A stretch of 33,553 nt of DNA from a bacterium. GTDB lineage: Bacteria > Zhuqueibacterota > Zhuqueibacteria > Zhuqueibacterales > Zhuqueibacteraceae. Of this stretch, positions 154-20,812 are shown one piece after another. The notes under the pieces were generated by a model. That model saw only the letters and a list, made by a program, of their open reading frames with translations. It was not told where the DNA came from and did no database searches. The position numbers and the translations under genes were made by a program. Numbering within the stretch: position 1 is the stretch's first letter; every line of letters starts with the position of its first letter. The stretch spans positions 1 through 33,553 of the forward strand of contig JBIOXB010000200.1 in assembly GCA_044869275.1 (NCBI GenBank). Reading direction: 5' to 3'.

Positions 154-1455
154 TTACGTCTTCGGCAATCCCTTCTGCATCACGCGTTCGATGGCATCCG
201 CAAACCGGTCGATTTCTTCAATGGTAGTGTAAACGCTCGGCGTGATGCGCAGACCTGCACATTCGTCGTGCTTGATCGGCGTAACCAGCATGCGATGCTG
301 CTGCCACAAATAACTCGTGAGCTCGACCGGGTCGAGGCCAGCCACTTGCACGTTCGCCAACCCACCGGCAAAACCCGGCATCAAGCTGGTGTTGAGCTTG
401 ATGCGATCGTGGAGCATCAATCGCTTGGCCCAGCGATCGCGCAGATAAACCAGGCGCGCCTCTTTGCGTTTCGCGCCGAGGCCGCGGTGAAAAGCCAGCG
501 CTTCGGCAATGGCGAGATAATTCGCCGCGGGATGCGTGCCGATCTCTTCGAATTTACGAATGTCATGGTCCATTTTCTCGGGTGCGGCCATCATCGGCCA
601 CAAGCCGGCGATTTTATCCCGGCGCACGAACAACATGCCGGTGCCGTGCGGCGCGAACAGCCATTTGTGCAAGCTGGTGGCGTAATAGTCGCAGTCCAAA
701 TCCGGGTGCGCGAAAGCGAAGTGCGCGAAAGCGTGCGCGCCGTCAACGATCACGGGAATGCCCTTTTTGCGCGCCATTTGCACCACCTGCTTCACCGGCA
801 GAATCTGCCCGGTGAGGTTGACCATATGGCACATCAAAATCAATTTCGTCTGCGGTGAAATATTCTTTTCGAAGAGCGCGGTGATTTCATCCGGGTTTTC
901 GCAAGGTACGGGGAGGGAAAACTGCCTGAGCTTGATGCGGTCGCGGCGCTCACGCTGCTGCCAGGTGGTGATCATGCGGGGATAATCTTGCGTCGTGGTC
1001 AGCACTTCATCGCCCGGTTTGAAATCGAAACCGAGCTGGCAAATTTGCAGGCCTTCGGAAGCATTACGCGTGAGCGCGATCTCCTCCGGCACACAGCCCA
1101 AGGCCTCGGCCAGGCCCTGGCGCACGCCTTCGCGCTGCGGCTCCAGAATCTGCCACATGGTATAGACCGGCGCATTGTTGGAATAATCGAGATGGCGCTT
1201 CATCGCGCTTTGCACGACGGCCGGCGCTGGTGAAACCCCGCCATTGTTCAAATTGATCAGGCTGCGATCAACGGTAAACGCTTGCTGCACTTCGAACCAC
1301 AACGCTTCATCGGCGGCAATTTCTTCCGGCGCGCCGGGGTGCTGCGCCAGCATTTCAAACACCCGCGCCGCGCGCGCAGGTTCAAAGGTCGCGCCGGCAA
1401 ATCCCAACGCAGCGGTGCGGCCGAGAGCGCCTAAAAACTCACGGCGATTAAACAT
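154..1455 (-). CDS. Tat-exported class V PLP-dependent aminotransferase (isopenicillin-N epimerase/lyase-like)
   Basis: N-terminal NRREFL twin-arginine motif followed by a hydrophobic stretch. Class V motifs LNNGG, TRNASEG, DGAH and SLHKW (PLP lysine). Confidence 0.85.
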   Translation of the reverse strand: MFNRREFLGALGRTAALGFAGATFEPARAARVFEMLAQHPGAPEEIAADEALWFEVQQAFTVDRSLINLNNGGVSPAPAVVQSAMKRHLDYSNNAPVYTMWQILEPQREGVRQGLAEALGCVPEEIALTRNASEGLQICQLGFDFKPGDEVLTTTQDYPRMITTWQQRERRDRIKLRQFSLPVPCENPDEITALFEKNISPQTKLILMCHMVNLTGQILPVKQVVQMARKKGIPVIVDGAHAFAHFAFAHPDLDCDYYATSLHKWLFAPHGTGMLFVRRDKIAGLWPMMAAPEKMDHDIRKFEEIGTHPAANYLAIAEALAFHRGLGAKRKEARLVYLRDRWAKRLMLHDRIKLNTSLMPGFAGGLANVQVAGLDPVELTSYLWQQHRMLVTPIKHDECAGLRITPSVYTTIEEIDRFADAIERVMQKGLPKT

Positions 1456-1580: not shown

Positions 1581-2378
1581 TCAAACGATCAACTTTTGTC
1601 CCGTGCGAAATGCGGAAACGAAGCGATCCAGGCCGTGCGACCCGCCGTTGACCAGCCGGCGCGCGGTGCGCAAGTCGTCCACCAGCAGCGCCTCGCGAAT
1701 GGCCTTTTCTTTATCCTTTAAAAATGCCGCCAGCAGCGTCGCTGCGAGCGCCGGATCGTTCGCCAATTCGGGACGGTTGAGCAACTGCTCGCCCAGACCG
1801 ATGCGATTGCCGTAGCGCTGATAATTCGCACGGCCGGTGAGCTGCACGAAGCCGCGGCCGCGAAAGCGCTCGCCGTCAGGGGGGCCTTGGTTGCCCAAAT
1901 CTTTGCGGTTGTCATAGAGATCGAAAGGATGACCGCCGGGAGAAGTGTTGAAACGCGAGGGCAATTCACTGATGGGTTCAAAGCTTTCCGTTTCCGCGCG
2001 GATGGTGGCGAGCGCCATGAGGATCATGTTCTTGTCGATCAAATCCGCGGTTTGCAGGGCATTCAATACAATGGGAAGGTTCTTCTTGATATTATCGATC
2101 GGCGTGAAGGGAAACATCTTGGTGACGATCGCAACGGTGACCTCGGGCATGGTCGAACGCGTGCTGAGGTCCGGCACGAATCTCAAGGCTTGCAACGTTG
2201 CCTCATCGGCAATGCCATTGGCGAGCAGGCCTTCGCTTTTCTGAAAGGCGATAACGGCGGCTTCTGTGCCCAGGCCGAATTCGGCGTCGAGGGCACCGGG
2301 ATTGAAGCCCAAATCCTTCAAGCGCTGTTGCAGCTGCTTGACTTCTTCTCCGGAATCGCCTTCTTTCAAAATGCGCAT
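1581..2378 (-). CDS. Peptidoglycan-binding domain + GH19 chitinase/lysozyme-like hydrolase
   Basis: N-terminal PG_binding_1 pattern (LKEGDSGEEVKQLQQRL...FG..TEAAVIAFQ...L.A.G). GH19 motif FRGRGFVQLTGRANY and C-terminal VNGGSHGLDR. Confidence 0.88.
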   Translation of the reverse strand: MRILKEGDSGEEVKQLQQRLKDLGFNPGALDAEFGLGTEAAVIAFQKSEGLLANGIADEATLQALRFVPDLSTRSTMPEVTVAIVTKMFPFTPIDNIKKNLPIVLNALQTADLIDKNMILMALATIRAETESFEPISELPSRFNTSPGGHPFDLYDNRKDLGNQGPPDGERFRGRGFVQLTGRANYQRYGNRIGLGEQLLNRPELANDPALAATLLAAFLKDKEKAIREALLVDDLRTARRLVNGGSHGLDRFVSAFRTGQKLIV

Positions 2379-2507: not shown

Positions 2508-3908
2508 TTACGCTTCACATTGATGCGCTGTGAGCAGCATGCCCAACTTACCAATTTGCGTCTGCACCTGCACGCGAGCGCGATTCACCCAATGACCTTT
2601 CCCATTTTCGCGCAGCCGTTGCAACGCCAGCTCGCCATGCATGCGCTGATTCACAAAATCATAGTAGCGCTTGGAATGCCGGCCGCGAATTTGATAATCG
2701 CGATCATTGCTGATTTGCCATTCGCCGCCGGTCGCAATGAGATTTTGTCCGGCCATACGCTGATAGTATTCCGTGCCTTTGATGGGATAACTTACCGTGG
2801 TCAGCACCAAATCGGGATTGGCCTTTTTCACATGCGCGATGGTCGCGGCCACATCGTCCTCATTCTCATCTTCAAAGCCCCACATGAGAAACATGCCGGT
2901 TTCGATGCCGTAGCGTTTCGCCAGGCGTGTCATCGCCTGCACCTGCTCGGCTTTGACGCCGCGTTTCATTTGATCCAATAAGCGTTGCGAGCCGCTTTCT
3001 GAGCCGAGCCAAACCCGGAAGCACCCCATCTCTTTCAAGGCGCAAACCAGGTCTTCATGCATGCGATCGGCGCGGCAAATGCATTCAAATGGAATTTGGA
3101 TATTTCGTCTCTTCAATTCCGCGGCATACTCAAAGAACCATTTGTGATTGATGTTGAACACGTCGTCGGCATACCACAACATATCGGGATGATAGTTTGC
3201 GAGAATCATCTCGACTTCATCCACACAGAGAGGTGGGCTGCGCTTGCGCAAGGTCTTGCCAAAAACCGAATGGCTGCACCACGTGCAAGAATAGGGACAG
3301 CCGCGGCTGGTGATGAGCGAGGCCGCGCCCATGCCGTGGTGTGTCCGCCAGGTTTCAACATATCTGTGCAGATCAATCGCCGCGCGGTCGGGCAAGGGCA
3401 GCGCATCGAGATCGGGCAACAAGCGGCGCGCCGGCGTGCGCTGAATTTTGCCGCCGTCATCCTTGAAAACAATACCGGCGACTTTTGCAAGTTGTTCCCG
3501 TTTTTTCGCGGCCAGGATTGGAATCAAATCTTGCAAGGTCTCCTCCCCTTCGCCGATGACGACGAGATCTGCGCCGAAGTTCAAGTATTCTTCGGCATAG
3601 TACGGCGGATCCGGGCCGCCCACGATGACCGTGCAATCCTGCTGCTTGGCTTGCCGAATCATCGCCAGCACGTTGAATTTCGTCATCAAATTGGAATAAA
3701 TACCAATGACTCTCGGCTGGTGTAAGGCAAGAAACCGGGCAAAATCGTCCTTGCCGGAAAACGTGCTGTCGAAAATTTCCACGGCAAAATCTTTTTGCTT
3801 GAGAAATGACGAGATATACAATAGGCCCAAAGGCGGGTAAGGCTTCATGATCGCCCGTTCCTTGGAGTCTTCGTGCAAAAAGTAACCGTGGGTGAGAAGA
3901 ATATCCAT
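2508..3908 (-). CDS. Cobalamin-binding radical SAM enzyme (class B-type)
   Basis: B12-binding N-terminus (PPLGLLY, VGGPDP, GEGE), cluster motif TSRGCPYSCTWC, GSESGSQ. Confidence 0.92.
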   Translation of the reverse strand: MDILLTHGYFLHEDSKERAIMKPYPPLGLLYISSFLKQKDFAVEIFDSTFSGKDDFARFLALHQPRVIGIYSNLMTKFNVLAMIRQAKQQDCTVIVGGPDPPYYAEEYLNFGADLVVIGEGEETLQDLIPILAAKKREQLAKVAGIVFKDDGGKIQRTPARRLLPDLDALPLPDRAAIDLHRYVETWRTHHGMGAASLITSRGCPYSCTWCSHSVFGKTLRKRSPPLCVDEVEMILANYHPDMLWYADDVFNINHKWFFEYAAELKRRNIQIPFECICRADRMHEDLVCALKEMGCFRVWLGSESGSQRLLDQMKRGVKAEQVQAMTRLAKRYGIETGMFLMWGFEDENEDDVAATIAHVKKANPDLVLTTVSYPIKGTEYYQRMAGQNLIATGGEWQISNDRDYQIRGRHSKRYYDFVNQRMHGELALQRLRENGKGHWVNRARVQVQTQIGKLGMLLTAHQCEA

Positions 3909-3917
3909 AGAAACCGT

Positions 3918-5402
3918 TCAAACCAATTGCGCATTCGCTTTCTTCAGAGACTGCAATCGCGCATTTTCCCAATGCCACCAAGGCCTTTTCAAGCCCAAGG
4001 CAATGCATTGGCGTAAATTGTTCACGCAGAATTTAGAAGGATGCTGCCACATCTCGGAAAGCAACTTTGTTGCTTTCCGCCAGCGAAATTCCTGATGCAC
4101 CACGCGGTGCAGCTGCCGATAGAATTCCGGCTGGTACCGGCCGCGAAACATGAGATCGAGATCGTTGCTGTGCTCCCAATTGTGTTTGCCCGCCATTTCG
4201 TTCTTCACGCGCTCGTAAAAGCGCGTGCCCGGCAGCGGATAGGAAACCGAAATGCCGATGTCGTCCGGCTGGCATGCACGCACCATTTTCAGAGTCTTTT
4301 CGATATCTTCATCCGTCTCGCCGGGATAGCCGAATTGCAAAAAGAAACAGACTTCAATGCCATGCCGTTTCAAACGCTCGGCCGCCGCATGAATTTGTTC
4401 GACCTTCGTGCCTTTGTCCATGGCATCCAAAATTTTCTGCGAGCCGGATTCCGCACCCACCCACACGGTTTTGCACCCGGCTTTTTTCAGTGCGGCCACC
4501 GCCTCTTCATGCAGCAAATCCACGCGTGCCTGGATTTTGAAGGGCGTGGTCACGCCAGCGGCTTGCACGGCCTCGCCGAACCTTTCCACCCAGCCCGGCT
4601 TCAAGCCGAAAATATCATCCGCAAACCAGATGTGATCCGGCTGAAAATTCCGGCGCAGCCACAGCATTTCTTCAACTACGTTTTCCGGCGAGCGCGAATT
4701 GTAGCGATCACCGTAAATCGGTTTCGCACACCAGTTGCAGTGAAAGGGGCAGCCGCGCGTGGTCACGAGGTTGACGGAATAATATCCGTGCTTCCGCTTC
4801 CACGCCGCGCGATATTTTTCCACTTCCAACAATTCCCACGCAGGAAATGGAAACACCTCGAGATTTTTTTGAAAGCCGCGCGGCGCCAGCGCATGCGTCA
4901 CACCATTCTCCGGCAGCGCCACGCCGGGGAGGTTTTGGATTTTATCCTCAGACCGGCGCAGCAACGCTTCGAGCAATTCATGCAGCGTGATTTCGCCTTC
5001 GCCAATAATGGCATAATCCGCGCCATGTTCGAAATACAGCTGCCGGTGATCCGTCGGGTCAGACCCGGCGACGATGACCGGCACCTTTGGGCCGAGATGA
5101 TTTTTCACAAATCCCATCATCTCAAAACAGGCTTCGCGCATGCGGGTGAGGCACATTTTACTCAGCCAGTTGAAGCTGTCTTCATAAAATACGACCGCGC
5201 GCGGTCGATGCACTTGCAATTTCGGAATAAGCTCCGCGGGGCTCTCGGCGAGCATGCTATCGAAAAGCGCGACCTGATAACCCTGTTGGCGCTGATAGGC
5301 GGCAGCGTAAAGCGTACCCAGGGGCGCATAAGGCTGCATGGTGCGCCATTGCTTGGGATCGAAGCGCAAGAAGAAACTGTGCGCGAACAGAACGTCAGTC
5401 AT
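3918..5402 (-). CDS. Cobalamin-binding radical SAM enzyme (class B-type)
   Basis: APLGTLY, GEGE, TTRGCPFHCNWC, GAESGSQ, GYPGET. Start overlaps the upstream stop (ATGA). Clear paralogue of 2508..3908. Confidence 0.92.
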   Translation of the reverse strand: MTDVLFAHSFFLRFDPKQWRTMQPYAPLGTLYAAAYQRQQGYQVALFDSMLAESPAELIPKLQVHRPRAVVFYEDSFNWLSKMCLTRMREACFEMMGFVKNHLGPKVPVIVAGSDPTDHRQLYFEHGADYAIIGEGEITLHELLEALLRRSEDKIQNLPGVALPENGVTHALAPRGFQKNLEVFPFPAWELLEVEKYRAAWKRKHGYYSVNLVTTRGCPFHCNWCAKPIYGDRYNSRSPENVVEEMLWLRRNFQPDHIWFADDIFGLKPGWVERFGEAVQAAGVTTPFKIQARVDLLHEEAVAALKKAGCKTVWVGAESGSQKILDAMDKGTKVEQIHAAAERLKRHGIEVCFFLQFGYPGETDEDIEKTLKMVRACQPDDIGISVSYPLPGTRFYERVKNEMAGKHNWEHSNDLDLMFRGRYQPEFYRQLHRVVHQEFRWRKATKLLSEMWQHPSKFCVNNLRQCIALGLKRPWWHWENARLQSLKKANAQLV

Positions 5403-6490
5403 ACGGTTTTTTGCTCAATCTGCGATTGTGTGATTTTCTTTGACAATCCTGCGGGCAAGGCCCACGGCTTGAGATGAAGCGAACACGTGCACCGGCGGCA
5501 GATGGGATCGGTCTGCACTTCGAGATTTCTGCGGAAGGCACGCGCACGGCGCGAATTTAAGATGGCTTCCAGTGAATGGCTGCGAATGTTGCCCAATTCC
5601 GGATGAAAGAAACATGGCCGTACCACACCGTTGGCTTCAATCACCGTGGAAATCCAGGGCGCGTTGCAAAGCGGCGTGGGGAAATCATTCCGGCCCAAAA
5701 CCGCGGCAAAGTATGCAGGCAAGCGCCGCAATTTCTCCGGACTCTCGGCAATGAAGCCCGTGCTGAAAGCTGCTGAAAAATCGGCGATCGCCTGTTCCAC
5801 TCGTGTGGCGAATTCTTCCACCTCACTTTCGCAGAGCGCCGTTTCCGCCACTCGCGCCGGTTCCCAAGGAGTGGCGCGGTTGAAACCGGTGGAGAACACA
5901 TCGACCGCCAGAAAAGATATTTGATCCAAGCCCAGCTCTTGTGCTGCGAAAATGATGTTCGGCAGATCGAAATAATTCAGCTTTTGCAGCGCGCAACGCG
6001 CGGTAATCCGCATCGCCGGGTCGAAAGCTCGCAGGGCTTGAATGCCGCGTTCCAGCTTGGCGTAAGCGTCGGGCATATTGCGAATGCGATCGTGCACCCC
6101 GCGGCTGCCATCCAGCGAGACGATCACTTCATCGCACCAACGCGAGATATTTGCAGCGTGCCGATCGAGCAGGAGCCCGGTCGAAAGCAAGGTGATTTTA
6201 ATGTGCAGCGATTTCAGCAGCTCACACAACGTCCAAAGATTGCTGTGCAAGAGAGCCTCGCCACCGGAAAGCACAACCCAGCGCACGCCCAAACGCCGAA
6301 AACCGTCGAGATGGCGGGACAACTCTGCGACGGAGATTTCCTGTTTGTCGGCATTGGCTTTCCAAATATCGCACATCACGCAGCGGCAGTTACACGCGCT
6401 GTGCGGCATCAACACCACCACCGGCACGTGAGAAAGGCGGTGGGTAAGGCGTGCCTGCAGCAGCTGCGCGGTTTCCAGCAAACGGCTCAT
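5399..6490 (-). CDS. Radical SAM protein with SPASM/twitch domain
   Basis: CNCRCVMC, SGGEAL, VSLDG; C-terminal CNAPW...G.VRPC...GNI...CRRCTC. ATGA coupling at both ends. Confidence 0.9.
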   Translation of the reverse strand: MSRLLETAQLLQARLTHRLSHVPVVVLMPHSACNCRCVMCDIWKANADKQEISVAELSRHLDGFRRLGVRWVVLSGGEALLHSNLWTLCELLKSLHIKITLLSTGLLLDRHAANISRWCDEVIVSLDGSRGVHDRIRNMPDAYAKLERGIQALRAFDPAMRITARCALQKLNYFDLPNIIFAAQELGLDQISFLAVDVFSTGFNRATPWEPARVAETALCESEVEEFATRVEQAIADFSAAFSTGFIAESPEKLRRLPAYFAAVLGRNDFPTPLCNAPWISTVIEANGVVRPCFFHPELGNIRSHSLEAILNSRRARAFRRNLEVQTDPICRRCTCSLHLKPWALPAGLSKKITQSQIEQKTV

Positions 6491-7572
6491 TTCAGCACTT
6501 CACTTAATTCCTCGTTCATTGCAGCCGGCGGCATCCCGGCGCGATGCGGACCGTGATCGACTTTGGCAAGCCGGCGCTGCGCTTTATCCGGCGCATCATC
6601 CATCCGCATCTGGCCGCATCCCCCCTCCACGGGTTCACCGATATTGGAATTCAGGAAGCCGACGGTGAATCCGCGCCGGCGCAGAGTCGCGGCAAAGGCG
6701 CGTACGCGCTGCGGCGAGGATTTGGCAAAATCGCGCTCGGCAATGCGATTATAGCTTTGCAGGGTCACGACGATCTTCAAATCGCCCAATAAGTCGGCCA
6801 GCTCATCGGCATGATCGATGGAGTCGTTGACGTTTTCCAACAAGAGATATTTGGCCTCGATGAACATCCACCGCGGCGCGCGGCGCAGCACGCGGACGAC
6901 GTCATCCAGAGGATATACCTTGGTAATCGGCACCAATTGCCGGCGCAGCTCATTATTCGGCGCATGAAAGGAAACGATCAAATTCACCGGCAGGCGCTCC
7001 GACATCATTTTCTCCATCGCCGGAATGACGCCGGAGGTATTGACGGTCGAGGGAATGTAGTGCCGCGCCAAAAGGTAGCGCACCGTTTCAGCCACGGTCT
7101 CGTAGTTCAGCAGCGGCTCACCGATGCCGGAGTAATAAATGCGCTGCAAGCGGGTCTTGGGCGGCAGGGATCTTCGCAACGTCTCAATTTGCGCCAGCAT
7201 TTCGTCGAGGGTTAAGTTTCGCAGAAAGGGTAAAAGTGAAGAAGCGCAAAAAGGACAATTGACGGCGCAGCCCACTTGCGTGGAAATACACACGTCGTAA
7301 TGAATTCGCCGGCGTACGAATGGCGCCTTTTCCACACCACGATCCTGTCCAACGCTACCGCCGGACTTGCGCAGATAATAGACCCACGCCGGAAACGTGG
7401 CAATCAACAACCCTTCAATGGTGGCACTGTCCTGCAGGCGAAAGGCATATTTACTTACGTGGCCAAAGGTGGCTCGGTCTTCAATCGTCGCAAAAGTGCC
7501 GAGCGTTCTTTGCACGCGTGTAGAGGGCAGGGTTTGGCCGCTGATTTCGTCCAAGCGCACACGCATTGCCAT
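6487..7572 (-). CDS. RlmN/Cfr-like (class A) radical SAM methyltransferase homologue, divergent
   Basis: CISTQVGCAVNCPFC, SGIGEPLLN (MGMGEP equivalent), VSFHAP...R..LVP, KYLLLENVND, C-terminal GGCGQ. Confidence 0.88.
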   Translation of the reverse strand: MAMRVRLDEISGQTLPSTRVQRTLGTFATIEDRATFGHVSKYAFRLQDSATIEGLLIATFPAWVYYLRKSGGSVGQDRGVEKAPFVRRRIHYDVCISTQVGCAVNCPFCASSLLPFLRNLTLDEMLAQIETLRRSLPPKTRLQRIYYSGIGEPLLNYETVAETVRYLLARHYIPSTVNTSGVIPAMEKMMSERLPVNLIVSFHAPNNELRRQLVPITKVYPLDDVVRVLRRAPRWMFIEAKYLLLENVNDSIDHADELADLLGDLKIVVTLQSYNRIAERDFAKSSPQRVRAFAATLRRRGFTVGFLNSNIGEPVEGGCGQMRMDDAPDKAQRRLAKVDHGPHRAGMPPAAMNEELSEVLK

Positions 7573-7596
7573 TCTCCAAAATTTATCAACATACGA

Positions 7597-8787
7597 TCAA
7601 GCAAGTTCTTGTCGCTGCCAAGCGCGTTGCAGCGCGAAAGCCGCCTTTTCCGCGCCGCCGGCACGGTGGTCGAAACAGCCGCAGCAGCGCGTACAGGCCG
7701 GGAGCAAACCGCCTTCCATTTTGAGCAATTGCCGAAAAGCGATCATGGCTTTGCCGTTCCATATTGCCCGAAGCGAAACCTCATTCAGATTGCCGGCGAC
7801 GGTATTGAAACAACGCCCGTGCGCGGGAATCACGTCGCCGTTGGTTTGAATCATCACCATGTTCCAAGGATCGCTGCAGAAATTGCCGGCCGCCGGTTCG
7901 CTCACCTTCTCGAAATAGCGCTGCAGTTCTTGTTCCGATTGCACGCCGGGGCGAAGGTTGAAAAAAATTCCCAGCGCGGCGGCTTTGGCGCGCGCGGCAT
8001 CGATCTGGCGCATGAGCGCCTTCAAATCAAAAGCATGCAAGTTGACTTGGCGCAAATTCGTCACCGTCGCGGGATAACGCCTGCCGAAACGCAGATTGTG
8101 CTGTGCCGCGCTGTCCGGATGAATAAAATTCAGCAAGGTCGCCACCACCTGCGTCGGCCGCACCGGCCGCAATTCTTCGAGCAGGTCAACCAAAGTCAAA
8201 TAGCTTTCTTCCGTGAAGACATACACCACGTTGAGCGTTGGGAGGCTTTGGCGTTGCCGCCCTTTAAGCTCGGCAACGGCGTGCAGACCTTGCATGAGCA
8301 GGTCAAACGATCGCTTCGAGCCGCGCACCTCGTTGTGAACTTCACGCGTGCCGTCCACTGAAACGAAAAGCTCATCCAAGCCCAGCTCGACCAGGGGCGC
8401 AGCCAGGCGCGGCAAGGTAAAACCGTTGGTAGTGAGGCTGCAATAAAATCCGGCGCGCTTGGCCTGTTCGACCAGGTCCACGACTTTGGGGTGAATGCCG
8501 GGCTCGGTGTAGCTGAGACTGAGGCGCGGACGGACGGGAAATGCGCCGGCATCTGCGAGAATGCGGTCAAAAAGATCGAGCGCCATGTTGCCATGGCTCT
8601 GCCCGATCAAGTTGCGATAAAAAATCGTGTCGCTGGTGCCGGTGCCGACGTCGCACATTTTGCAGTGGAGATTGCAGGTGTTATTCACCACCAGGACAAT
8701 CCAGCGCGGGCCGAGGCTATTTTTTCCCGTGGGGGAAAGATAAGCCAACCGGCGGCTGAAGCTTTCTAATCGCGGTGGCATTCTCAT
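7597..8787 (-). CDS. Radical SAM protein with SPASM/twitch domain
   Basis: CNLHCKMC, TTNG, VSVDG; C-terminal CSDPW...NGDVIPAHGRC...GNL...CTRCCGC. Confidence 0.9.
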   Translation of the reverse strand: MRMPPRLESFSRRLAYLSPTGKNSLGPRWIVLVVNNTCNLHCKMCDVGTGTSDTIFYRNLIGQSHGNMALDLFDRILADAGAFPVRPRLSLSYTEPGIHPKVVDLVEQAKRAGFYCSLTTNGFTLPRLAAPLVELGLDELFVSVDGTREVHNEVRGSKRSFDLLMQGLHAVAELKGRQRQSLPTLNVVYVFTEESYLTLVDLLEELRPVRPTQVVATLLNFIHPDSAAQHNLRFGRRYPATVTNLRQVNLHAFDLKALMRQIDAARAKAAALGIFFNLRPGVQSEQELQRYFEKVSEPAAGNFCSDPWNMVMIQTNGDVIPAHGRCFNTVAGNLNEVSLRAIWNGKAMIAFRQLLKMEGGLLPACTRCCGCFDHRAGGAEKAAFALQRAWQRQELA

Positions 8788-10640
8788 TGCTGATCGCCTG
8801 CCTGCAATTGCAATAGATGAAAAACCTCAAATAAATGCGGCTTGCTCTGGTGCGCCACCACCTCATAACCAAAACGATGAAATTTTTCGTGCAGCAAAGC
8901 CAGCGGCATATCCGAAGACATGATCAAAACAATCTTCCCGCGCGGTTGGAGAAAATTGGGGGCCTGTGCGAGGAAGCGCTCGATGGTTTCGTAATGATCG
9001 CCGGCATACCAAGCTGCCTCTTCCGGCCGCTGCACCGGGCCGGGGAAATAGGGAGGATTGAAAGCAATCCAATCAAATTTTTCTGCCGGGTCGAGCCGAG
9101 CGAAGAGATCGCTTTCCAAACCGCGCCAGCGGCCGTTCAAATCGTAGATCCGGGCATTTTCATTCGCCAACATCACCGCCGCGGGATTGACATCCACGGC
9201 CAAGACGTGCGCGCCGCGTTGGGCGGCCATGAGGCCGACAATACCCGAACCTGTGCCCATGTCCAGCACCTTTTCCTGCGCGGCCACCTGCGCGGCCAAA
9301 TAGCGGCCAAGAATTTTGCTGCTGAAAAAAAATTTCGGATGAAAGACCTTCACCTCGGTGCGCAGCTTCAGGCCATCAACCGCAGTATCCGCATTTTTTC
9401 GGCGTTGATGATTAATGACCGGCAACGCCAGGCGAAAGAACAGCGGCCGGATTTTCCGGCGAATCTTCATGCCCACGGGTATTTCAGTTTGATGCCACAA
9501 TGCTTTTGCCGAGTTCTTTTGCCTGGCTCCTAATTGTGCATAAAGCTCATCAAACCGGCGAACCGTATGTGCAATATCATACTGCGCGCGAATCTTTGCG
9601 GCAGCGGTGCGGGCCTGTTGCTGCAAAGAACGCAGGTTTTGCAAGCAGTGTTGCAAGCCGGCAAAAGCAGTTTGCGATGATTCCACAAAAACGATGGCGG
9701 CGCCCAGGCTTGCAAGCTCATCCGCGACACCCACCCGGGTGGCGAGCATGGGCAGCCCGGCAGCAGCCGCTTCGATCATCGCCATACCCTGCGCCTCGTG
9801 CGCGGAAAGAGAAATAAGTAAATCGAACTGAGACAACTGCTGTTTGAAGAGCTGCTCCGGCTGCCAGCCGGCCAATTCTACGGAATCGTTCAAACCCCGA
9901 TGCATAATTTCTTTGCGCAATGCAGTTTCCAACGGCCCGGTTCCGGCAATCGTCAAATGCCATGGCTTCGTCTCAAGCGCACTAACCATCTGCAGAATCT
10001 GAGAAATGTTTTTCATCGGTTGCAGGGCGGCCACGTTGAGCAAGCGCAGCTCAGCATTTGCCCCCCCATTTCTGCACGGCAGGGCTGCGGGATCAATGCC
10101 GAGGGGTGCGAGCACGATTCTCTCTTTTGCCGCCGGAACGAATGCGGCTACTTTTTCAAAATAATACTTCGACCCGGTGGTGACGGCGTCGGCATGCGCC
10201 AAACAGCGGCGCAAAATCCATCGCCAATGCGGTTTTGAGATCGCGCCATAGTCGAACGCGGGCAAATCGGCTATTTCACCGCCCAACATGGAGAGCACCA
10301 CCGGAGCTCCCGCCAGTTTGGCAAACACCGTGGCCGCAAGACTGCCGACGTGCCAAATGCCATGGGTGAGATCGAAAGGCCGCTCGCGGTGAAGGTGCCA
10401 AGCCTCGCGCAAGAGCGCAACCGTCTTGCCCGGAAAGTTGCCGGCTGTCAGCCTGCCGGTGGCGACGACATTGAGGCGATGAAAACGATAACTTTTCCCA
10501 GCCACCGGCTGCATGCCGCCCACGGCAAAAACCCAAATCTCATGCGACTCGGAAAGCCGGAGCAAAGTATCGATCACTGCCGGGGTATAGTCGCCGTCGA
10601 CTTTCTCGGGAAATCCGTTTGAAAAAAGTGCCACGCGCAT
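8784..10640 (-). CDS. Fusion: GT4 glycosyltransferase + HemK/PrmC-like class I SAM methyltransferase
   Basis: GT-B half with EAQGMAMIEAAAAG (EX7E). C-terminal VLDMGTGSG, VDVNP and NPPY motifs. One continuous 618-aa ORF. Confidence 0.87.
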   Translation of the reverse strand: MRVALFSNGFPEKVDGDYTPAVIDTLLRLSESHEIWVFAVGGMQPVAGKSYRFHRLNVVATGRLTAGNFPGKTVALLREAWHLHRERPFDLTHGIWHVGSLAATVFAKLAGAPVVLSMLGGEIADLPAFDYGAISKPHWRWILRRCLAHADAVTTGSKYYFEKVAAFVPAAKERIVLAPLGIDPAALPCRNGGANAELRLLNVAALQPMKNISQILQMVSALETKPWHLTIAGTGPLETALRKEIMHRGLNDSVELAGWQPEQLFKQQLSQFDLLISLSAHEAQGMAMIEAAAAGLPMLATRVGVADELASLGAAIVFVESSQTAFAGLQHCLQNLRSLQQQARTAAAKIRAQYDIAHTVRRFDELYAQLGARQKNSAKALWHQTEIPVGMKIRRKIRPLFFRLALPVINHQRRKNADTAVDGLKLRTEVKVFHPKFFFSSKILGRYLAAQVAAQEKVLDMGTGSGIVGLMAAQRGAHVLAVDVNPAAVMLANENARIYDLNGRWRGLESDLFARLDPAEKFDWIAFNPPYFPGPVQRPEEAAWYAGDHYETIERFLAQAPNFLQPRGKIVLIMSSDMPLALLHEKFHRFGYEVVAHQSKPHLFEVFHLLQLQAGDQQ

Positions 10641-10652
10641 CAGAGTGTGCCG

Positions 10653-11837
10653 TCAAGTCTTGTCATAAAGTGTCAACAACTTTTGCGCGAGGGCTGCATA
10701 CGAAAACTCCTGCTCAAAGCGGCGATGCACGCGCTCGCGTTGCGAGCAGGCTACGGACTTGGGCAGCTGCGAAAGAATGTGCTGCAAAGCACGAGCATCG
10801 CCCGGCGGAAACAAGAAACCACAACGACCATCGTCACAAAGCAGGCGAAAACTGGGAATGTCAGTGAGAATCGGAATCGCACCAGTTGAGATGGCTTCCA
10901 CCGCGGCGTAGCCATAAGCTTCATGGTGGCTGCCCTGCACAAAATAATCAATGGCGCGAAAAAAAGCTTCGAGCTGCGCATGCGGCACCCGGCCGCGCAA
11001 AAACACCCGTTGCTGCAGGATCGGATGCTTTGCAATCATGGCTTCACAAGCCGCGCGCAAATCATCCTTGATAAAATGCATATAAAGCCGCGCCCCGAGA
11101 TTTTCTGCAAAGTAACCCGTGCTGGCACGCAAAATGGTAAGGGGATCTTTGTTGTGATCCAGATGCGCCACCCAGCCGAAAATCGGCGCGCCCTCCATCT
11201 GCAATTGCCGGCGCAAACGGCAGCGCTCCGCCTCGCCAACCGGGGAGAAGCTTGAAGACGCCGCGAAAAGGATTTTGCATTTATCCGGTGCGAGCAGGTC
11301 GCGGCCAATCCACAAGTCACGCATGTTTGAGTCGCCAAAAATAACTTGACGAATCGCGGCAAGTGGTTTTTTATAAAGCTGTCTCTTCATGCCCAAAGCC
11401 GGCACGCCGCCGCCGTGATCTTGCACCACGCAATGGAGGCCGTGTTCTCGCGCCAACTCATTTAAAGCCCGCAGTGCCATCCACGAATTCAATCCGTGCT
11501 GATGCACCACCTCGGGGTTTTCAGCAGCAGCAGCACGAGCGACGCAGCGCGCTTGCTTCCAGCCGACATACTGCCGTCTTGAGCCAACTTTCAAAAACCT
11601 CGCTGTCCGGACGAATTTGATTTTAATCTCATCCTGGAAAAATGTCAGGCTTGCGCTGGACGGGGCAATCCAGGAAACCTGGAGACCCAATCTCTGCTGG
11701 GCACGCAGCAAGTGCGTGACTCCCGGAAATCGTTCTGCCAGCTCCTCCCATGAAACGAGGAGCGGCATTTCATGAAAGACGGTATGGCAAACTTTCATGC
11801 TCATGCGATGGCCGTTTAGTTTGCCAGAATGTGCCAC
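10653..11837 (-). CDS. GT4 glycosyltransferase
   Basis: EAYGYAAVEA (EX7E), TDIPSF, GFLFPPGD. GTG start preceded by GAGG. Confidence 0.88.
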   Translation of the reverse strand: MAHSGKLNGHRMSMKVCHTVFHEMPLLVSWEELAERFPGVTHLLRAQQRLGLQVSWIAPSSASLTFFQDEIKIKFVRTARFLKVGSRRQYVGWKQARCVARAAAAENPEVVHQHGLNSWMALRALNELAREHGLHCVVQDHGGGVPALGMKRQLYKKPLAAIRQVIFGDSNMRDLWIGRDLLAPDKCKILFAASSSFSPVGEAERCRLRRQLQMEGAPIFGWVAHLDHNKDPLTILRASTGYFAENLGARLYMHFIKDDLRAACEAMIAKHPILQQRVFLRGRVPHAQLEAFFRAIDYFVQGSHHEAYGYAAVEAISTGAIPILTDIPSFRLLCDDGRCGFLFPPGDARALQHILSQLPKSVACSQRERVHRRFEQEFSYAALAQKLLTLYDKT

Positions 11838-11847
11838 GGTTCTGACC

Positions 11848-13356
11848 TCAAGAACGGCCGCTCCACATATCCACGGCCTGGCGCCGGGTCTTTCGAGAGG
11901 TCAATAAAAAAAGCCTGTTCAAGATGCGCAGATCAAGAATGGTCTGATAGCGGCTCAGGCGCAAGTGCAAATGAGCAACCCGGTGCAGCAGACGCAAAAA
12001 GAGGTTGCGAGGAAACAGCTGGCGGAAACGGCGATGCAAGAAACTGGTGGCGTAGAAGGTCGTGATCGTAAAATTGTACAGCTTGCGCCGGTACTGCGGA
12101 GAGAGCCAGGCTTTGCCGTTGCCGCTGCGTTGATCGAGATGCGACCATTCGGCGATGCTGTTTGTGGTTTTGGAGGCGAACTCCTTGGCGCGATGAAAAG
12201 CCGGGGTGCTGTCATAAGCGGTGGTGATGTAGATCATCAGTTCGCTTTCAGGATTGAGGCGTCGCAGCTCGCGGCACAACGCTTCAGTGCGGCTGAAATT
12301 ATCCGGCGGTTCACCGGGATAGCCGAGGTTGAACGAGAACGTGGTTTTGATTTTGTGCCGGCCCAGTTTCTCAGCGGCGCGCAGAATATCATCCACCTTG
12401 TGATCGCGTTCCATCATTTGCAACACCGCCTCATGCCCGCTTTCGGCGCCGATGAACACCCAGCGCAACCCGCTGCGCGTCAGCAGTCCCAGCATGTCGT
12501 CGTCGTACTCGGCAATTTTATCCGGTCGCGCCTCGCCGCTCCAGAGAATTCCCAGCTTGGCATCGAGTAAAGCGCTCGCGATCTCATACGTGCGCTGGTC
12601 GTTCACGAAAAAGTTGTTGTCGTAAAACTCCACGCTTTGCGCGCCGGTATTTTCCAGCAAGAACCGAATGTCCCGCAAAACTCTTTCTGCCGGAAAGCCG
12701 CTCCAACGCTGCTCGTAGATTTGTGTGACCGTGCAAAAATTGCAGCGGAACGGGCATCCGATGCTGGAATGATAGGAAATGCTTCTCGAGGTGAGACTGT
12801 CAATCAAGAAGGACGAGAGTGGCACCAGATGATACGGGAATGCCGGAAAATCCTCGAGGTTGCGAAAGGCAGCGCCGCCGGGATTATGGATGGGAAGGCC
12901 GTTCTCCTTGCGCCAGATCCCCGGTGTCAGGGCAGCGCCATCCTGCGCCGCAAAACGATTGGCGAAATCGAGAAACGTCCATTCTCCCTGGCCGGTCACC
13001 ACGAAATCTGCGAGCTCGCTGGCAACCGTGGTTTCGGGATAGAGAGAGGGATGATATCCTCCCCACACCAAAGGAAGTCTTGGGAAATGCTGGCGGAGCA
13101 AGCGCGCCGCGCGCAGGGCAGATTCAATCTGAAAACCGGTAAAACAGGAAATGCCAAGGAGATCGGCTTGTGCCGCCGCCGCCAGCAGGCGTTGCGCATA
13201 ATGAGGCGTCGAAAACTCATCGAGAATTTCCACCTCATACCCCGCGGCCACCAGCGGTGCTGCCACCGCCAGACATGAATACGGCACGGTGCACGAATCA
13301 CCAGGAGTTGCCCGAGGATGTAGCAAGAGAATTTTTATGCGCCGAGGCAACATCAT
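11848..13356 (-). CDS. Cobalamin-binding radical SAM enzyme (class B-type)
   Basis: WGGYHPS, GQGE, SSIGCPFRCNFC, GAESG, GYPGE. Start moved to ATG 13356 (or 13353) after GAGG; the longer ORF extension looks non-coding. Confidence 0.9.
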   Translation of the reverse strand: MMLPRRIKILLLHPRATPGDSCTVPYSCLAVAAPLVAAGYEVEILDEFSTPHYAQRLLAAAAQADLLGISCFTGFQIESALRAARLLRQHFPRLPLVWGGYHPSLYPETTVASELADFVVTGQGEWTFLDFANRFAAQDGAALTPGIWRKENGLPIHNPGGAAFRNLEDFPAFPYHLVPLSSFLIDSLTSRSISYHSSIGCPFRCNFCTVTQIYEQRWSGFPAERVLRDIRFLLENTGAQSVEFYDNNFFVNDQRTYEIASALLDAKLGILWSGEARPDKIAEYDDDMLGLLTRSGLRWVFIGAESGHEAVLQMMERDHKVDDILRAAEKLGRHKIKTTFSFNLGYPGEPPDNFSRTEALCRELRRLNPESELMIYITTAYDSTPAFHRAKEFASKTTNSIAEWSHLDQRSGNGKAWLSPQYRRKLYNFTITTFYATSFLHRRFRQLFPRNLFLRLLHRVAHLHLRLSRYQTILDLRILNRLFLLTSRKTRRQAVDMWSGRS

Positions 13357-13560: not shown

Positions 13561-14601
13561 CTAATTGTTTTGCGCCCCGCGATTGATCCAGGCGGCGATG
13601 GAATCGGTTTCCGTCTGGCTCAAGGGCGCGCCAATCGGCGGCATGCCCCGGCCCACGCTGTTATCGGCAATGACCTTCAAATACAAAACGCTATTGTTGG
13701 CATTGCCTGGCGCGACCCGCAGGCGGCCGAATTGGGCAGAGTTCACGCCCACCAAAGTCGTAAAGGAGGTGCCGGCCGCGAGCGACATCGGCGCGCCGCC
13801 ACCCGGATGGCATCCCGCGTTCACACATTTGGGTGTGAAAATGTTCGCTTGAATGCTGGACAGCGTTGCCTGCAGCGGTGGTGGCGCGATTACGGTGACT
13901 CCCAAGGTGTCACTTAGGCCATTCGCTGTGGCCGTAATCGTTGCTGAACCAATACTCACGCCGGCGACCAGGCCGCTATTCATATCGACGGTTGCAACAT
14001 TCGGGGCGGAGCTGGACCAGGTAAATATCGCGGTGATCCCATTATTGTTCGCGTCCAGAGCCTGCGCATTGAGATCGAGATTGGCCCCGATTTGTATGGT
14101 GGTGTTGTTCGGTCTTGTAATGCGAACGCTGTTGACGATACCGGGCGTGGTGTCTGGAAGCGCGCCCGCGTTGATCCAGTCTCGGATGGCGTTGATCTCG
14201 GTCGTGCTCATGGGTCCAAGGCCCGCCGGCATGCGCGCCGAAGGCCCACCTACGGCCGGATCACCCAGAACCTTCAAATAGAGCGAACTGTTCATCGCGT
14301 CGTTCGGTTTGACGCGCAGCATGCGCGGGTTGCCATAGGCCGAACTGGCGTAAACCAAACTACTGTAGGTGAGCCCGCTCTGGAGCGAAAACGGCGCGAT
14401 ACCGGGGGTGATGCCGGCGGTGTGACAGGCCGCCACGGCGCATTTCAAGTTGAAAATGTTAGCCTGCAGGCTGGCCAGCGTCGGCTGCACGACTACCGGC
14501 GGCGGTGCGCTGGGCGAATCTTGCTTGCAAGCAGCCATGAGAAAAACCAAACCGAGCAACAACACTCCTTCTGCACATTGGTTGAAAAACCGTGTGGGCA
14601 T
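13561..14601 (-). CDS. Lipoprotein with two CX4CH cytochrome c-like domains flanking an Ig-like (Big_2) domain
   Basis: Lipobox-like MAAC. CAVAACH and CVNAGCH are each followed by an MP motif and WI..GA. Central Big_2 pattern WSSSAPNVATVD...GLV.GVS.G.ATITAT. Confidence 0.8.
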   Translation of the reverse strand: MPTRFFNQCAEGVLLLGLVFLMAACKQDSPSAPPPVVVQPTLASLQANIFNLKCAVAACHTAGITPGIAPFSLQSGLTYSSLVYASSAYGNPRMLRVKPNDAMNSSLYLKVLGDPAVGGPSARMPAGLGPMSTTEINAIRDWINAGALPDTTPGIVNSVRITRPNNTTIQIGANLDLNAQALDANNNGITAIFTWSSSAPNVATVDMNSGLVAGVSIGSATITATANGLSDTLGVTVIAPPPLQATLSSIQANIFTPKCVNAGCHPGGGAPMSLAAGTSFTTLVGVNSAQFGRLRVAPGNANNSVLYLKVIADNSVGRGMPPIGAPLSQTETDSIAAWINRGAQNN

Positions 14602-14679
14602 AACTTGTCTCCTTTGACTGAAAAATTCGCCGTCATGGCAAAAAATGAATAAAACTTAATGCACCAGCTCATACAACCA

Positions 14680-14708
14680 AGATTAAAATCGCCCCTGCCC
14701 ACACGCAA
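14680..14708 (-). promoter_or_regulatory. Weak putative sigma70 promoter for the 14601 lipoprotein gene
   Basis: TTGCGT-17 nt-TAATCT on the minus strand in the intergenic region. Confidence 0.3.
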
Positions 14709-14722
14709 TCATCGTGTTGCTT

Positions 14723-15316
14723 TCATTTTAGCGTCAACAAATAATCCGCCATGGCCTCGAGCTCCTCTTTGGGCAGAGCGCCATACTTGGGCATGAGCGA
14801 ATCTTTGACGAACGCCTGCGGATCGACGAAGTGGTCGACCAGCCATTTTTTATCGTGTTTGGCGCCCACACCTTTGAGATTCGGCCCGGCGCCTTCTTTG
14901 TTACCGATGCCGTTGAGCACGTGACAATTGCGGCACTGTTCGCGCACCATGGCGAAGCCGGCCGTAACGGCGTTAGCGGCGGCGGCATCAGTTTTCTCGC
15001 GCGCCTGGATATAAGCCACCAGGGCCGCAACTTCTTCGCCCATGGTTCGTTTCTGCCGGCGCGGAGAAGTATCTTTGCGCAAAACATTTTCCAATTTCAA
15101 TGAGTCGACGTGCGCCGCTAATTTTGCCGAATCGGCCGGTGCTTTCAGCGGCGTGAATTGCTTCGCGCCTTGATTGTGGCAGTCACCGCATTTTTTTAGG
15201 TTGTAAATCTGCTTGCCGCCGAGCGCGGCAATATCCGGCGTTTGCGCCCGCAGGCCAGCCGCCATCACTATCAATCCGAAAAGGACAATTCCGCAAAGAC
15301 GCGAGCTCCTGATCAT
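14723..15316 (-). CDS. Periplasmic diheme cytochrome c
   Basis: Signal peptide, CGDCH and CRNCH. C-terminal GPNL..VG...W...H..DP....DSLMP resembles cbb3-II/NorC-type cytochrome domains. Confidence 0.85.
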   Translation of the reverse strand: MIRSSRLCGIVLFGLIVMAAGLRAQTPDIAALGGKQIYNLKKCGDCHNQGAKQFTPLKAPADSAKLAAHVDSLKLENVLRKDTSPRRQKRTMGEEVAALVAYIQAREKTDAAAANAVTAGFAMVREQCRNCHVLNGIGNKEGAGPNLKGVGAKHDKKWLVDHFVDPQAFVKDSLMPKYGALPKEELEAMADYLLTLK

Positions 15317-15358
15317 GACTCTCAGCCTTTCTTTCGTGGTTTAGATTTTCACATCCGT

Positions 15359-15802
15359 TCAATTGTTCTGCGCGCCGTTGTTGATCCACGTTTGAATCGC
15401 GCTCATTTCTGCTGCGCTCAGGGCTTGCATGCCTTGTGGCATTTGCCCTCCCAGCGTGTTGCCGGAGACTTTCAAATACAATACACTGTTATTGGCGTTT
15501 CCGGGCTGGACGCGCAATCTTGGCCCGTAGCCGCTGGACGTCACTCCCGTGCCTCCCGCTCCGACGAGAGTATTGTAGGACTGCCCTGTTTGCAGTGATA
15601 ATTGCCCGGTGGGGTTGCCGCCAGTATGGCAACCCGGTATCGCACACTTCGGTGTGAAAATATTCGTTTGAATGCTCGACAATGTGGGTTGCACTTGTAC
15701 CGGCGGTGCGGTGATTGGCGTTTGATGCTCGCACGCCACGAAGACAAGACTGATCAACAACAACAGGCTTCCACTCACCGCCGCAAGCGTTCTTACTTTC
15801 AT
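15359..15802 (-). CDS. Lipoprotein with one CX4CH cytochrome c-like domain
   Basis: ATG 15802 follows AGGAG. Lipobox FVAC, CAIPGCH, GQMP, WINNGAQNN. Paralogous to both domains of 13561..14601. Confidence 0.8.
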   Translation of the reverse strand: MKVRTLAAVSGSLLLLISLVFVACEHQTPITAPPVQVQPTLSSIQTNIFTPKCAIPGCHTGGNPTGQLSLQTGQSYNTLVGAGGTGVTSSGYGPRLRVQPGNANNSVLYLKVSGNTLGGQMPQGMQALSAAEMSAIQTWINNGAQNN

Positions 15803-15867
15803 GATCTTCTCCTGTAATGAAACCGGCTTCATCCGCCCAGATCGCGGTGTTTCCGGACAGATACTAT

Positions 15868-16016
15868 CTTGACAATGTTAAGTTAAATTCGTGCCCTCTC
15901 AATTTGTCATCCCGACGCTTCGGGATCTTCCCTAGGTTTGTGTGCAAGCCTCGTGGGAAGATTCCTACAGAATGACAAAAACTAGGGGCTTTTTTAGCCA
16001 ACTTAACATTGTCAAG
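15868..16016. mobile_element. MITE-like element, 149 bp, perfect 17-bp terminal inverted repeats
   Basis: CTTGACAATGTTAAGTT (15868-15884) and its exact reverse complement (16000-16016). CTAT lies directly outside both ends (15864-15867, 16017-16020). No coding capacity. Confidence 0.65.
15903..15979. repeat. REP-like nested hairpin inside the MITE-like element
   Basis: Stems TTTGTCAT/ATGACAAA, ATCCCGA-cgct-TCGGGAT and ATCTTCCC/GGGAAGAT. The 20-mer 15907-15926 recurs inverted at 33528-33547. Confidence 0.65.
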
Positions 16017-19720: not shown

Positions 19721-20812
19721 TCATAAAAACAAAGCCGCTTCAGCGACAACACCAGGGCCGAAGGCGAGCGCGACACAAGGTGTTTCCGCACCGCGCGCCT
19801 GCAATTCCTGAAGGATGAACAAAACCGTCGGCGAAGACATGTTGCCGTGCTCGCGCAACACCGCGCGCGAGACTGCCAATGCTTGATCGTTTAACGCCAG
19901 GCTGCGCCCCACCGCACCAATGATGCGCGGCCCACCGGGATGAATCGCCCAGCTCTTGATGTCGTTCATCTGCAAATGATTTTGCGCGAGCCAGTCGGCG
20001 AGCCACACGCGCAGATGGGCGTCGATCAATTCGGGCAGCGTGGGCGACAGCGTCATGCCGAAGGCCTGGTCCCCGATGCGCCAGGTCATCGCCTGGCCGG
20101 ATTGGGGAATGACGAACGAGCCACAATCCGCCACTTGCCAGTGCTGCTTCTGGCGCTGGCGGCCGGGCTGGGCGACCACCGCGGCCGCACCGTCGGCAAA
20201 CAAAGCGTTGGAGACAATTTGTTCCGGATGCCAGCCGTATTGATAATGCAGGCTGCACAACTCCACACAGCAGATCAAAATCGTCGCGCTGGCATCTCGA
20301 TGCGCGAACGCCAGAGCCGTGCGCAAGCCATTGATGGCGCCGTGGCATCCCATGAAGCCGATGTGCGTGCGTGCGACGCTGGGCACCAGCGACAAATCGC
20401 GAATCAGGGCGTAATCGACGCCCGGCGCAAAAAAGCCCGTGCACGACACCGTGATCACATGCGTGATCTCTCTGCGCGCAATGCCCGCGTGGTCCACGGC
20501 CTTCTGTGCCGCCGCCAGTGCGAGCTTCGGCGCTTCTTCTTCATAGCGCTGCATGCGTATGCCCATGCCCGGCCCGCGATCCTCGGGGCTGCGCATGGGC
20601 GGATAAAAAGATTGATGGATAACGCCTTGCGCATCTTGCTCCAGGATCACGCTGCCGCGCCGCGCGATGCCGCTCATGCGATACAAGCGATGAAAAACGC
20701 GTCGCTGCTCGTCCGTGGTGCAGGTGTAGGATTCTGCGAGCACGGCGGCGCGCTCGTGCGGAATGGCAAGCTCAGGCGAAGCTGTGCCGATGCTGAGGAG
20801 ACTGAGGCTCAA
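19721..20812 (-). CDS. Type III polyketide synthase (chalcone synthase-like)
   Basis: Catalytic triad motifs GFMGCHG (Cys), IHPGG (His) and GNMSS (Asn); also VELCSLH, ALFADGAAA, AFGPG. Confidence 0.95.
   Translation of the reverse strand: MSLSLLSIGTASPELAIPHERAAVLAESYTCTTDEQRRVFHRLYRMSGIARRGSVILEQDAQGVIHQSFYPPMRSPEDRGPGMGIRMQRYEEEAPKLALAAAQKAVDHAGIARREITHVITVSCTGFFAPGVDYALIRDLSLVPSVARTHIGFMGCHGAINGLRTALAFAHRDASATILICCVELCSLHYQYGWHPEQIVSNALFADGAAAVVAQPGRQRQKQHWQVADCGSFVIPQSGQAMTWRIGDQAFGMTLSPTLPELIDAHLRVWLADWLAQNHLQMNDIKSWAIHPGGPRIIGAVGRSLALNDQALAVSRAVLREHGNMSSPTVLFILQELQARGAETPCVALAFGPGVVAEAALFL

Follow-up and report, generated by a model that had tools for sequence, protein, structure and literature searches.

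GenK, GenD1, GenN, BtrN, AprD4 and AprI are tailoring enzymes of aminoglycoside biosynthesis, and BlsE is a tailoring enzyme of blasticidin S. In the fosfomycin system the cytidylyltransferase Fom1 is paired with Fom3, a B12 radical methylase for which the nucleotide serves as a handle. Radical S-adenosylmethionine (SAM) enzymes also act jointly with glycosyltransferases (GTs) on a lipid head group, as described for the hopanoid side-chain genes (HpnJ, HpnP, HpnR, HpnI and HpnG) and calditol synthase in the available part of the source (PMC13459092). The locus compared here with these systems is a radical SAM operon at positions 2508-13356 of a 33,553-nucleotide (nt) stretch of bacterial DNA ("the window"), which is one whole contig (JBIOXB010000200.1) of a 6.7 Mb genome (GCA_044869275.1) whose closest relatives are titled candidate division KSB1.

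Eight genes, named A to H in the order of transcription, make up the operon (Table 1). An earlier note on this DNA, made from the letters alone, had recognized three B12-binding radical SAM proteins (A, G and H), two of SPASM/twitch type (D and F), one RlmN-like enzyme (E), a GT4 (B) and a GT4-methyltransferase fusion (C), and Pfam agrees, with D and F being twitch-like. Gene J, which lies 4 kb upstream and is the most constant partner of the system, escaped that note, which also drew no special attention to E, the gene that is most unusual here. Two sources are patched together in the operon: a widespread cassette, represented by G, H, F, B and C and by J farther upstream, and a rare insert of three genes, A, D and E. 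It combines new members of known enzyme classes in a combination without earlier description. The reading favored here, with a probability of roughly 55%, is that these genes build and, by methylation and oxidation, heavily modify sugars belonging to a glycan or glycolipid of the cell envelope.

A widespread cassette among glycan genes

Relatives of H at 44-80% identity define 58 loci from KSB1, Chloroflexota, Acidobacteriota, Actinomycetota, Gemmatimonadota and Bacteroidota-type genomes. In an even sample of 301 genomes from one Bacteroidota-type phylum, 14 were positive for H, 33 for G and 37 for the J nucleotidyltransferase domain. All 33 genomes with G also have J, which in 32 of them lies on the same contig at a distance of about 2 kb or less; of the 14 genomes with H, 13 have G, and in the fourteenth G is cut by a contig end. 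A class I methyltransferase (MTa) was detected in 32 of 32 G/J windows, with a profile built partly from these windows. The constant unit of the cassette is J-G-MTa. H, F and additional B12 enzymes are optional, as are three other methyltransferases, glycosyltransferases of the families GT9, GT87, GT4b (that of B) and GT4c (that of C), a metallophosphoesterase and an amidohydrolase. The amidohydrolase is among the genes that recur across the loci, together with those of NUDIX and nucleoside phosphorylase-like type. Where no J is visible, Acidobacteria often carry an NTP_transf_5 protein (11 of 27 loci), accompanied in some loci by an HprK-like kinase.

Several open frames join cassette members: GT4 to J (in the window, in other KSB1 genomes and in locus L218, with the order reversed in Anaerolineae), J to G (L220), G to MTa (L219) and, in the window, GT4 to a HemK-like domain. 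A compact Bacteroidota-type copy of low G+C content (L202) consists of J-G-MTa-H with an ATP-binding cassette (ABC) exporter, two GT4s, one gene resembling GT2 and one resembling nucleoside phosphorylase, these two being labeled from the sequence rather than from a family scan; this copy suggests that a culturable carrier may exist. Cobalamin-dependent MetH is encoded in all five cassette genomes tested. In many Ignavibacteria-like genomes the core occupies a fixed chromosomal place with the same housekeeping neighbors, and a search of plasmids gave no match for H, G or D.

Genes of glycan assembly (GT4, GT9, GT87, GT2, PMT-like and flippase) are found at 18 of the 27 H loci of at least 19 kb and in 18 of 27 Bacteroidota-type windows of at least 16 kb. 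In the controls, such genes lie at 1 of 30 loci of RlmN and in 9 of the 220 tiles taken from the present genome; shorter loci (31 of 58 for H, 5 of 32 of Bacteroidota type and 50 of 80 for RlmN) were excluded from the count. A sugar or envelope product, which the earlier note had also proposed, is favored because cassette loci are enriched for these genes and because D is nearest to the sugar-acting enzymes BlsE and BtrN. Since carriers include monoderm lineages, the target would not be lipopolysaccharide only. About one-tenth of the 301-genome sample has the cassette, as do at least five further phyla, and the literature searched gave no product for it. Such a cassette suggests that sugars of the bacterial envelope commonly undergo an undescribed radical modification.

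Mosaic origin of the operon

The eight genes had been taken for one conserved pathway, which their distribution does not support. Orthologues of H are present in 15 of 18 genomes of the family and an orthologue of F in 1 of 18, while A and E were each found in a single genome among 167 from the phylum, the present one (0 of 166 others). In a second genome of the genus the order is J, barrel, lipoproteins, a stand-alone HemK-like methyltransferase (67% identical to the second domain of C), A13, GT87, GT9, A0, GDSL, PMT-like, G and H, followed downstream by the same genes as here. A-B-C-D-E-F stand where that genome has its middle block (A13-GT87-GT9-A0). The GT4-methyltransferase fusion in C is lineage-specific, as relatives carry the methyltransferase as a separate gene, 67-71% identical, at the equivalent place.

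The rare insert is recognized by sharp boundaries around its members. A has 38 relatives at 58% identity or more before a drop to 36%, and its nearest relatives outside that clade (32-36%) are the A0-type enzymes of the cassette. E has 48 relatives at 47% or more, after which the next matches are RlmN; in a cluster search, 3 of 1.84 billion 50%-clusters scored above 400 bits, followed by a gap to 222. D has 11 close relatives inside a larger family. Some of the A-D-E relatives are named Polyangiaceae or Deltaproteobacteria and others KSB1.

Joint travel of the three genes was assessed from the longest-contig size printed for each protein, after dropping the window's own proteins and rows without a size. 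Six of 37 sizes for A match one of 46 sizes for E; the controls gave no matches, either for A against 71 RlmN proteins or for 58 outgroup proteins against E. Cluster members, counted by eye, add seven more A/E matches. D and E have six sizes in common, and A, D and E three (9468, 8789 and 41780). These contig-size matches, rather than gene neighborhoods, point indirectly to A, D and E traveling together. None of the three was found in any cassette locus examined (0 of 59). Searches without a positive control did not find A in 331 sampled Acidobacteriota-type genomes or the D family in 301 Bacteroidota-type genomes. A metagenome scan for E-like proteins returned only housekeeping-type RlmN (80 loci at 31-43%), a viral scan with A found nothing, and in plasmids E matched only RlmN, and A only proteins at 28-30%. 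Neither the J-G-MTa cassette nor the A-D-E module is described in the literature searched, a body from which most subscription papers were absent.

In codon usage, A-F rank from the 14th to the 54th percentile among 1337 genes. A recent transfer of A-F is unsupported, there being no compositional signal in codon usage.

E, an RlmN-like enzyme with a probably altered substrate

The part of the operon most likely to surprise a specialist is E. Aligned to 3rf9, E keeps C95 and C319 at the positions of C118 and C355 of E. coli RlmN, together with E53, which, in numbering placed on the alignment, we take to be E105. The two cysteines, which define class A radical SAM methylases (PMC9692996, in the part available), are invariant in the alignment and have their equivalents in all 45 clade members of at least 300 residues; E also carries the CxxxCxxC motif. 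The tree (FastTree, midpoint root) places the 45 clade proteins on one side of a long branch from 70 RlmN-type proteins, with Shimodaira-Hasegawa support of 100.

Met176 of RlmN, present in 70 of 70 comparison proteins, is Ser in E and Ala, Ser or Gly in 45 of 45 clade members, so that the MGMGEP motif of RlmN/Cfr becomes A/S/G-G-I/V-GEP throughout the clade (45 of 45). This change need not abolish activity, since it is the backbone of M176 that is credited with stabilizing the cysteinyl radical (PMC9692996, available part).

The fold of E is like that of RlmN and Cfr, which methylate A2503 and tRNA A37 (Foldseek E values 3e-24 to 1e-13). A model of E (mean predicted local distance difference test score, pLDDT, 84.8) superposes on RlmN, starts at the strand extension and lacks the N-terminal helical domain; a helical insert of about 27 residues (62-87) is specific to the clade. 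The N-terminal RNA-contacting domain PF21016 is listed for none of the 48 clade proteins and for nearly all full-length RlmN matches, and the match of E to TIGR00048 begins at profile position 63. In the available part of its description, the N-terminal domain of Cfr grips the RNA backbone and anchors the enzyme on rRNA (bioRxiv 10.64898/2026.02.27.707579). E scores 199 bits against the RlmN cut-off of 290 (TIGR00048), and a separate RlmN of the genome scores 385; against Cfr, E reaches 130 and 128 bits, with cut-offs of 530 (NF000424) and 550 (TIGR04432). Unlike housekeeping RlmN, of which an intact copy lies elsewhere in the genome, E sits in an enzyme operon.

Because the catalytic cysteines are kept, the RNA-gripping domain is gone and the genome has a separate RlmN, E is likely to be an active class A enzyme with an altered substrate, either a small molecule or another RNA site, to judge from alignment and model. 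The class A enzymes named in the literature examined, in the parts available, are RlmN and Cfr only, both on RNA; no RlmN-like enzyme acting outside RNA was found in the literature searched, whose coverage did not extend to the RlmN-tRNA structure paper. A bolder and tentative proposal, which we would sooner doubt than accept, is that E is the first class A (methylcysteine) methylase recruited from RNA to biosynthesis, that it methylates, with A and D, an aromatic intermediate, be it the base of a nucleotide-linked sugar or something else, and that the operon unites the chemistry of class A and class B enzymes with that of twitch enzymes and an N-methyltransferase to give a multiply methylated envelope glycoconjugate. 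For class A chemistry directed at a small molecule, the E clade is a direct candidate, a matter of interest to enzymology and biocatalysis.

Operon layout and enzyme families

All eight minus-strand open reading frames (ORFs) are real and intact. The earlier note had described eight same-strand genes joined by gaps of 24 nt or less or by ATGA overlaps. The span, the strand and six of the junctions stand: 9 nt at H/G, 24 nt at E/D, 12 nt at C/B, and 4-nt ATGA overlaps at G/F, F/E and D/C. The seventh, B/A, depends on the start of B: GTG 11837 would give 10 nt, but a gap of 43-49 nt is more likely, because a homologue's first residue aligns to ATG 11798. From this spacing we infer translational coupling and co-transcription of the eight genes. 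Near-identical contigs from two further runs, X2 and X3 (X3 from another study, about 98% identical), span all 30 bins of the window, and since the contig pieces listed from them bridge the junctions of H with its upstream neighbor, D/C, A/lipoprotein and E/D, as well as the fusion within C, misassembly is an unlikely source of the layout. None of the eight proteins has a predicted membrane span (a 19-residue hydropathy window never exceeds 1.8), and the enzymes are likely cytoplasmic; an amphipathic-helix scan for membrane association was left unused, as controls scored equally high. No Rfam match was found.

Table 1. Genes of the operon, its partner J and neighboring features in the window
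Feature	Position	Strand	Basis
A: B12-binding (class B) radical SAM, rare clade	11848-13356	-	Pfam PF02310+PF04055
B: GT4 glycosyltransferase	10653-11804	-	29-33% to cassette GT4b family; start probably ATG 11798 or 11804
C: GT4 domain fused to HemK2-like (NPPY) methyltransferase	8784-10640	-	Pfam
D: twitch-type radical SAM + PF13186, PAHGRC...CxRCC family	7597-8787	-	Pfam, nearest structures BlsE/BtrN
E: RlmN-like class A radical SAM methylase	6487-7572	-	Alignment, model, clade tree
F: twitch-type radical SAM + PF13186, widespread cassette	5399-6490	-	58-61% to Anaerolineae and two KSB1 genome copies
G: B12-binding radical SAM, core cassette gene	3918-5402	-	Pfam, co-occurrence with J
H: B12-binding radical SAM, optional cassette gene, 33% paralogue of G	2508-3908	-	Pfam; 74-80% in 15/18 family genomes
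J: GT4 fused to winged-helix + putative polymerase-beta-type nucleotidyltransferase domain	17495-19657	-	Pfam, model; outside the span of the earlier note, 4 kb upstream
Two CxxxxCH lipoproteins, two-heme cytochrome c, DUF5777 barrel, between J and A	13561-17330	-	
Type III polyketide synthase (PKS), flavin adenine dinucleotide (FAD) oxidoreductase, PRK06202-family methyltransferase, running directly into J	19721-22718	-	
Peptidoglycan-binding protein, after H	1581-2378	-	
Tat-type class V pyridoxal phosphate (PLP) enzyme, after H	154-1455	-	
Polytopic membrane protein, divergent from the PKS cassette	23265-24968	+	Weak ALG3 match (E 0.003)

The CxxxCxxC motif is intact in all six radical SAM proteins (A, D, E, F, G and H) and is kept in the families of A, G and H, each of which exceeds both Pfam gathering scores, for the B12-binding N-terminal domain and for radical SAM. 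Class B enzymes are not all methylases (PMC9692996, available part). No operon enzyme attains any NCBIfam cut-off, all being far below, in agreement with the earlier judgment that no described pathway is recognizable here. For the named B12 radical SAM families (BchE, HpnJ, HpnR, PhpK, BzaD, AprD4 and others) the best score is 154 bits against a cut-off of 481 (BchE), and the rest are far below; D and F score 53 and 49 bits against the BlsE cut-off of 400 (TIGR04466). With only 4-6 C-terminal cysteines, D and F look like twitch domains rather than full SPASM domains (7-8 cysteines). The best PDB matches of D are BlsE (4e-21) and BtrN, and the three PDB matches of H include AprD4 and OxsB.

B, C and J exceed the Pfam thresholds for GT4 (PF00534/PF13692), and the GT4 motif EX7E is visible in the translation of each. 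The methyltransferase domain of C matches HemK2, GenN and the apramycin N-methyltransferase. In the J nucleotidyltransferase domain G105, D117 and D119 (G...DxD) are invariant, and the model (pLDDT 86.8) consists of a winged helix and a polymerase-beta-type domain. In a fold search ANT(4') is the best match at a modest Z of 6.3 (113 residues, root-mean-square deviation 3.3), most top rows are nucleotidyltransferases, and the best Foldseek match has E 6e-3 only.

Proposed roles and points against them

In the envelope-glycan reading, the GT4 domains of J, B and C would add sugars from nucleotide sugars, and the nucleotidyltransferase domain of J would attach or transfer a nucleotide-linked handle. 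G, H and A would C-methylate unactivated sugar carbons via methylcobalamin, although any of them might instead catalyze ring contraction or dehydration. The twitch enzymes D and F would oxidize, dehydrate or decarboxylate (fragment) a sugar, and the NPPY methyltransferase of C would N-methylate an amino sugar. E would methylate an sp2 carbon, most likely that of an adenine-like base on a nucleotide-linked intermediate, and not tRNA or rRNA.

Several observations weigh against this reading. The glycan references were drawn from cassette loci, and many loci are close kin, so the enrichment is overstated. In five long loci of Ilumatobacteraceae, H is accompanied by methyltransferases only, although the single genome of this kind that was tested has G at another place, beside GT4s. 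Orthologues of A0, A13, A15, GT87, PMT-like and MTa were not found elsewhere in the present genome, which is 94% complete, and both genomes of this genus lack MTa. As the present genome lacks all of these, its pathway may differ from that of its relatives or be incomplete. The best sequence matches of the methyltransferase in C are protein methyltransferases (HemK2/N6AMT1), and E is tied to a glycan only by its position in the operon.

Alternative functions

An unlikely alternative, yet one with real counterparts, is a diffusible glycoside or nucleoside natural product of aminoglycoside or blasticidin type, with J as an activating or self-resistance nucleotidyltransferase. Enzyme types with such counterparts are D (BlsE/BtrN), C (GenN and the apramycin N-methyltransferase), H (AprD4/OxsB) and J (ANT(4')), the patchy distribution of A-D-E resembles that of secondary metabolism, and the recurrent amidohydrolase, phosphorylase-like and NUDIX genes would fit as well, although these nucleoside enzymes may merely clear SAM by-products. 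The operon, however, has no aminotransferase, dehydrogenase or cyclitol synthase, the neighbors include GT9, GT87 and flippases, and the fixed chromosomal site of the core beside housekeeping genes in many Ignavibacteria-like genomes also counts against this alternative.

Less probable again is a division into two unrelated functions, in which E, by itself or together with A and D, acts to modify a cofactor or an RNA base and is merely inserted among cassette genes. The complete catalytic set of RlmN and its fold are indeed kept in E; A, D and E, absent from the cassette loci examined, seem to travel jointly without evidence of adjoining G or H. On the other side, E lacks the domain that anchors Cfr on rRNA, the genome's separate RlmN is above its cut-off, A is nearest to the A0-type enzymes, and A-F replace a cassette block in the same-genus genome.

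We give little credence to a role in glycosylating and methylating an alkylresorcinol or alkylpyrone lipid of the upstream type III PKS cassette, to yield a modified glycolipid: that cassette precedes J by a short gap on the same strand in both genomes of the genus, a similar one lies next to the core in two of the 32 Bacteroidota-type windows (L212 and L217), and an aromatic ring would supply the sp2 carbon needed by a class A enzyme, but 30 of the 32 windows and the other KSB1 genera examined have no nearby PKS, and the same-genus genome has the PKS with neither A nor E.

Three further candidates were rejected or found no support. Hopanoid tailoring fails on squalene-hopene cyclase, absent in five of five cassette genomes tested, the present genome included (the control gave a signal, a weak one, in 1 of 14). 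Enzymes of membrane-spanning or glycerol dialkyl glycerol tetraether (GDGT) lipids gave no match in the available parts of the literature examined, a comparison made by description and not by Mss/Gmm sequence. A SPASM system for a peptide that is made by the ribosome and modified after translation (RiPP) would require parts that the window lacks: as the earlier note had seen, no precursor, protease or exporter is visible, nor is a RiPP recognition element (RRE)/PqqD, and the 204 nt before A hold no convincing precursor ORF; a distant precursor is possible.

Neighboring genes

The lipoprotein, cytochrome and DUF5777 genes between J and A are kept beside the cassette in this family. A cytochrome-DUF5777 gene also flanks the cassette in loci L058, L161 and L218, and other cytochrome or barrel-like genes occur in Terracidiphilus loci; possibly these genes supply reductant, or the association is one of synteny only. 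Between the barrel and lipoprotein genes, at about 15860-16020, contig depth in three runs increases by a factor of 5 to 15 and loose ends are numerous, which suggests a short element repeated elsewhere. The C-terminus of the peptidoglycan-binding protein looks chitinase/lysozyme-like (FRGRGFVQLTG), with no Pfam match there. There, as in the same-genus genome, this gene and the PLP enzyme come after H; four other genomes of the family have the PLP enzyme between G and H. The product of 23265-24968 is probably a GT-C glycosyltransferase and might supply the GT87 or PMT-like function that the locus lacks.

The cassette methyltransferase MTb (N-terminal CxxC...CxxC) is encoded on another contig of the genome (C215 32983-33864; locus L169 10927-11874) and is fused to a NUDIX domain in relatives of the family. 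A further radical SAM protein, 24-29% identical to G and without a Pfam B12 match in the copy scanned, recurs beside GT9 and GNAT genes in KSB1/Ignavibacteria-type cassette loci (L156 6790-8280, L157, L158, L164, L191 and L001). In another KSB1 family, a NodU/CmcH-type carbamoyltransferase (L160 18136-19899) stands immediately before a full cassette.

Comparison with known systems

The operon shares its toolkit with aminoglycoside tailoring and with BlsE: GT4s, B12 and twitch radical SAM enzymes and an N-methyltransferase. The similarity is distant (E values 1e-21 to 1e-7), and the operon has no scaffold synthase or aminotransferases; unlike aminoglycoside genes, the cassette is spread over at least six phyla among envelope genes. 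With the hopanoid system the likeness is one of family: HpnJ is first or among the top NCBIfam matches of A, G and H, but at 94-127 bits against 577.6. As in the Fom1/Fom3 pair, a nucleotidyltransferase, here a putative one (J), is coupled with a B12 radical SAM enzyme (G). The nucleotidyltransferase domain of Fom1 has a fold other than that of J, which is modeled as a winged helix with a polymerase-beta-type fold, and in contrast to the fosfomycin system the window holds no phosphonate genes.

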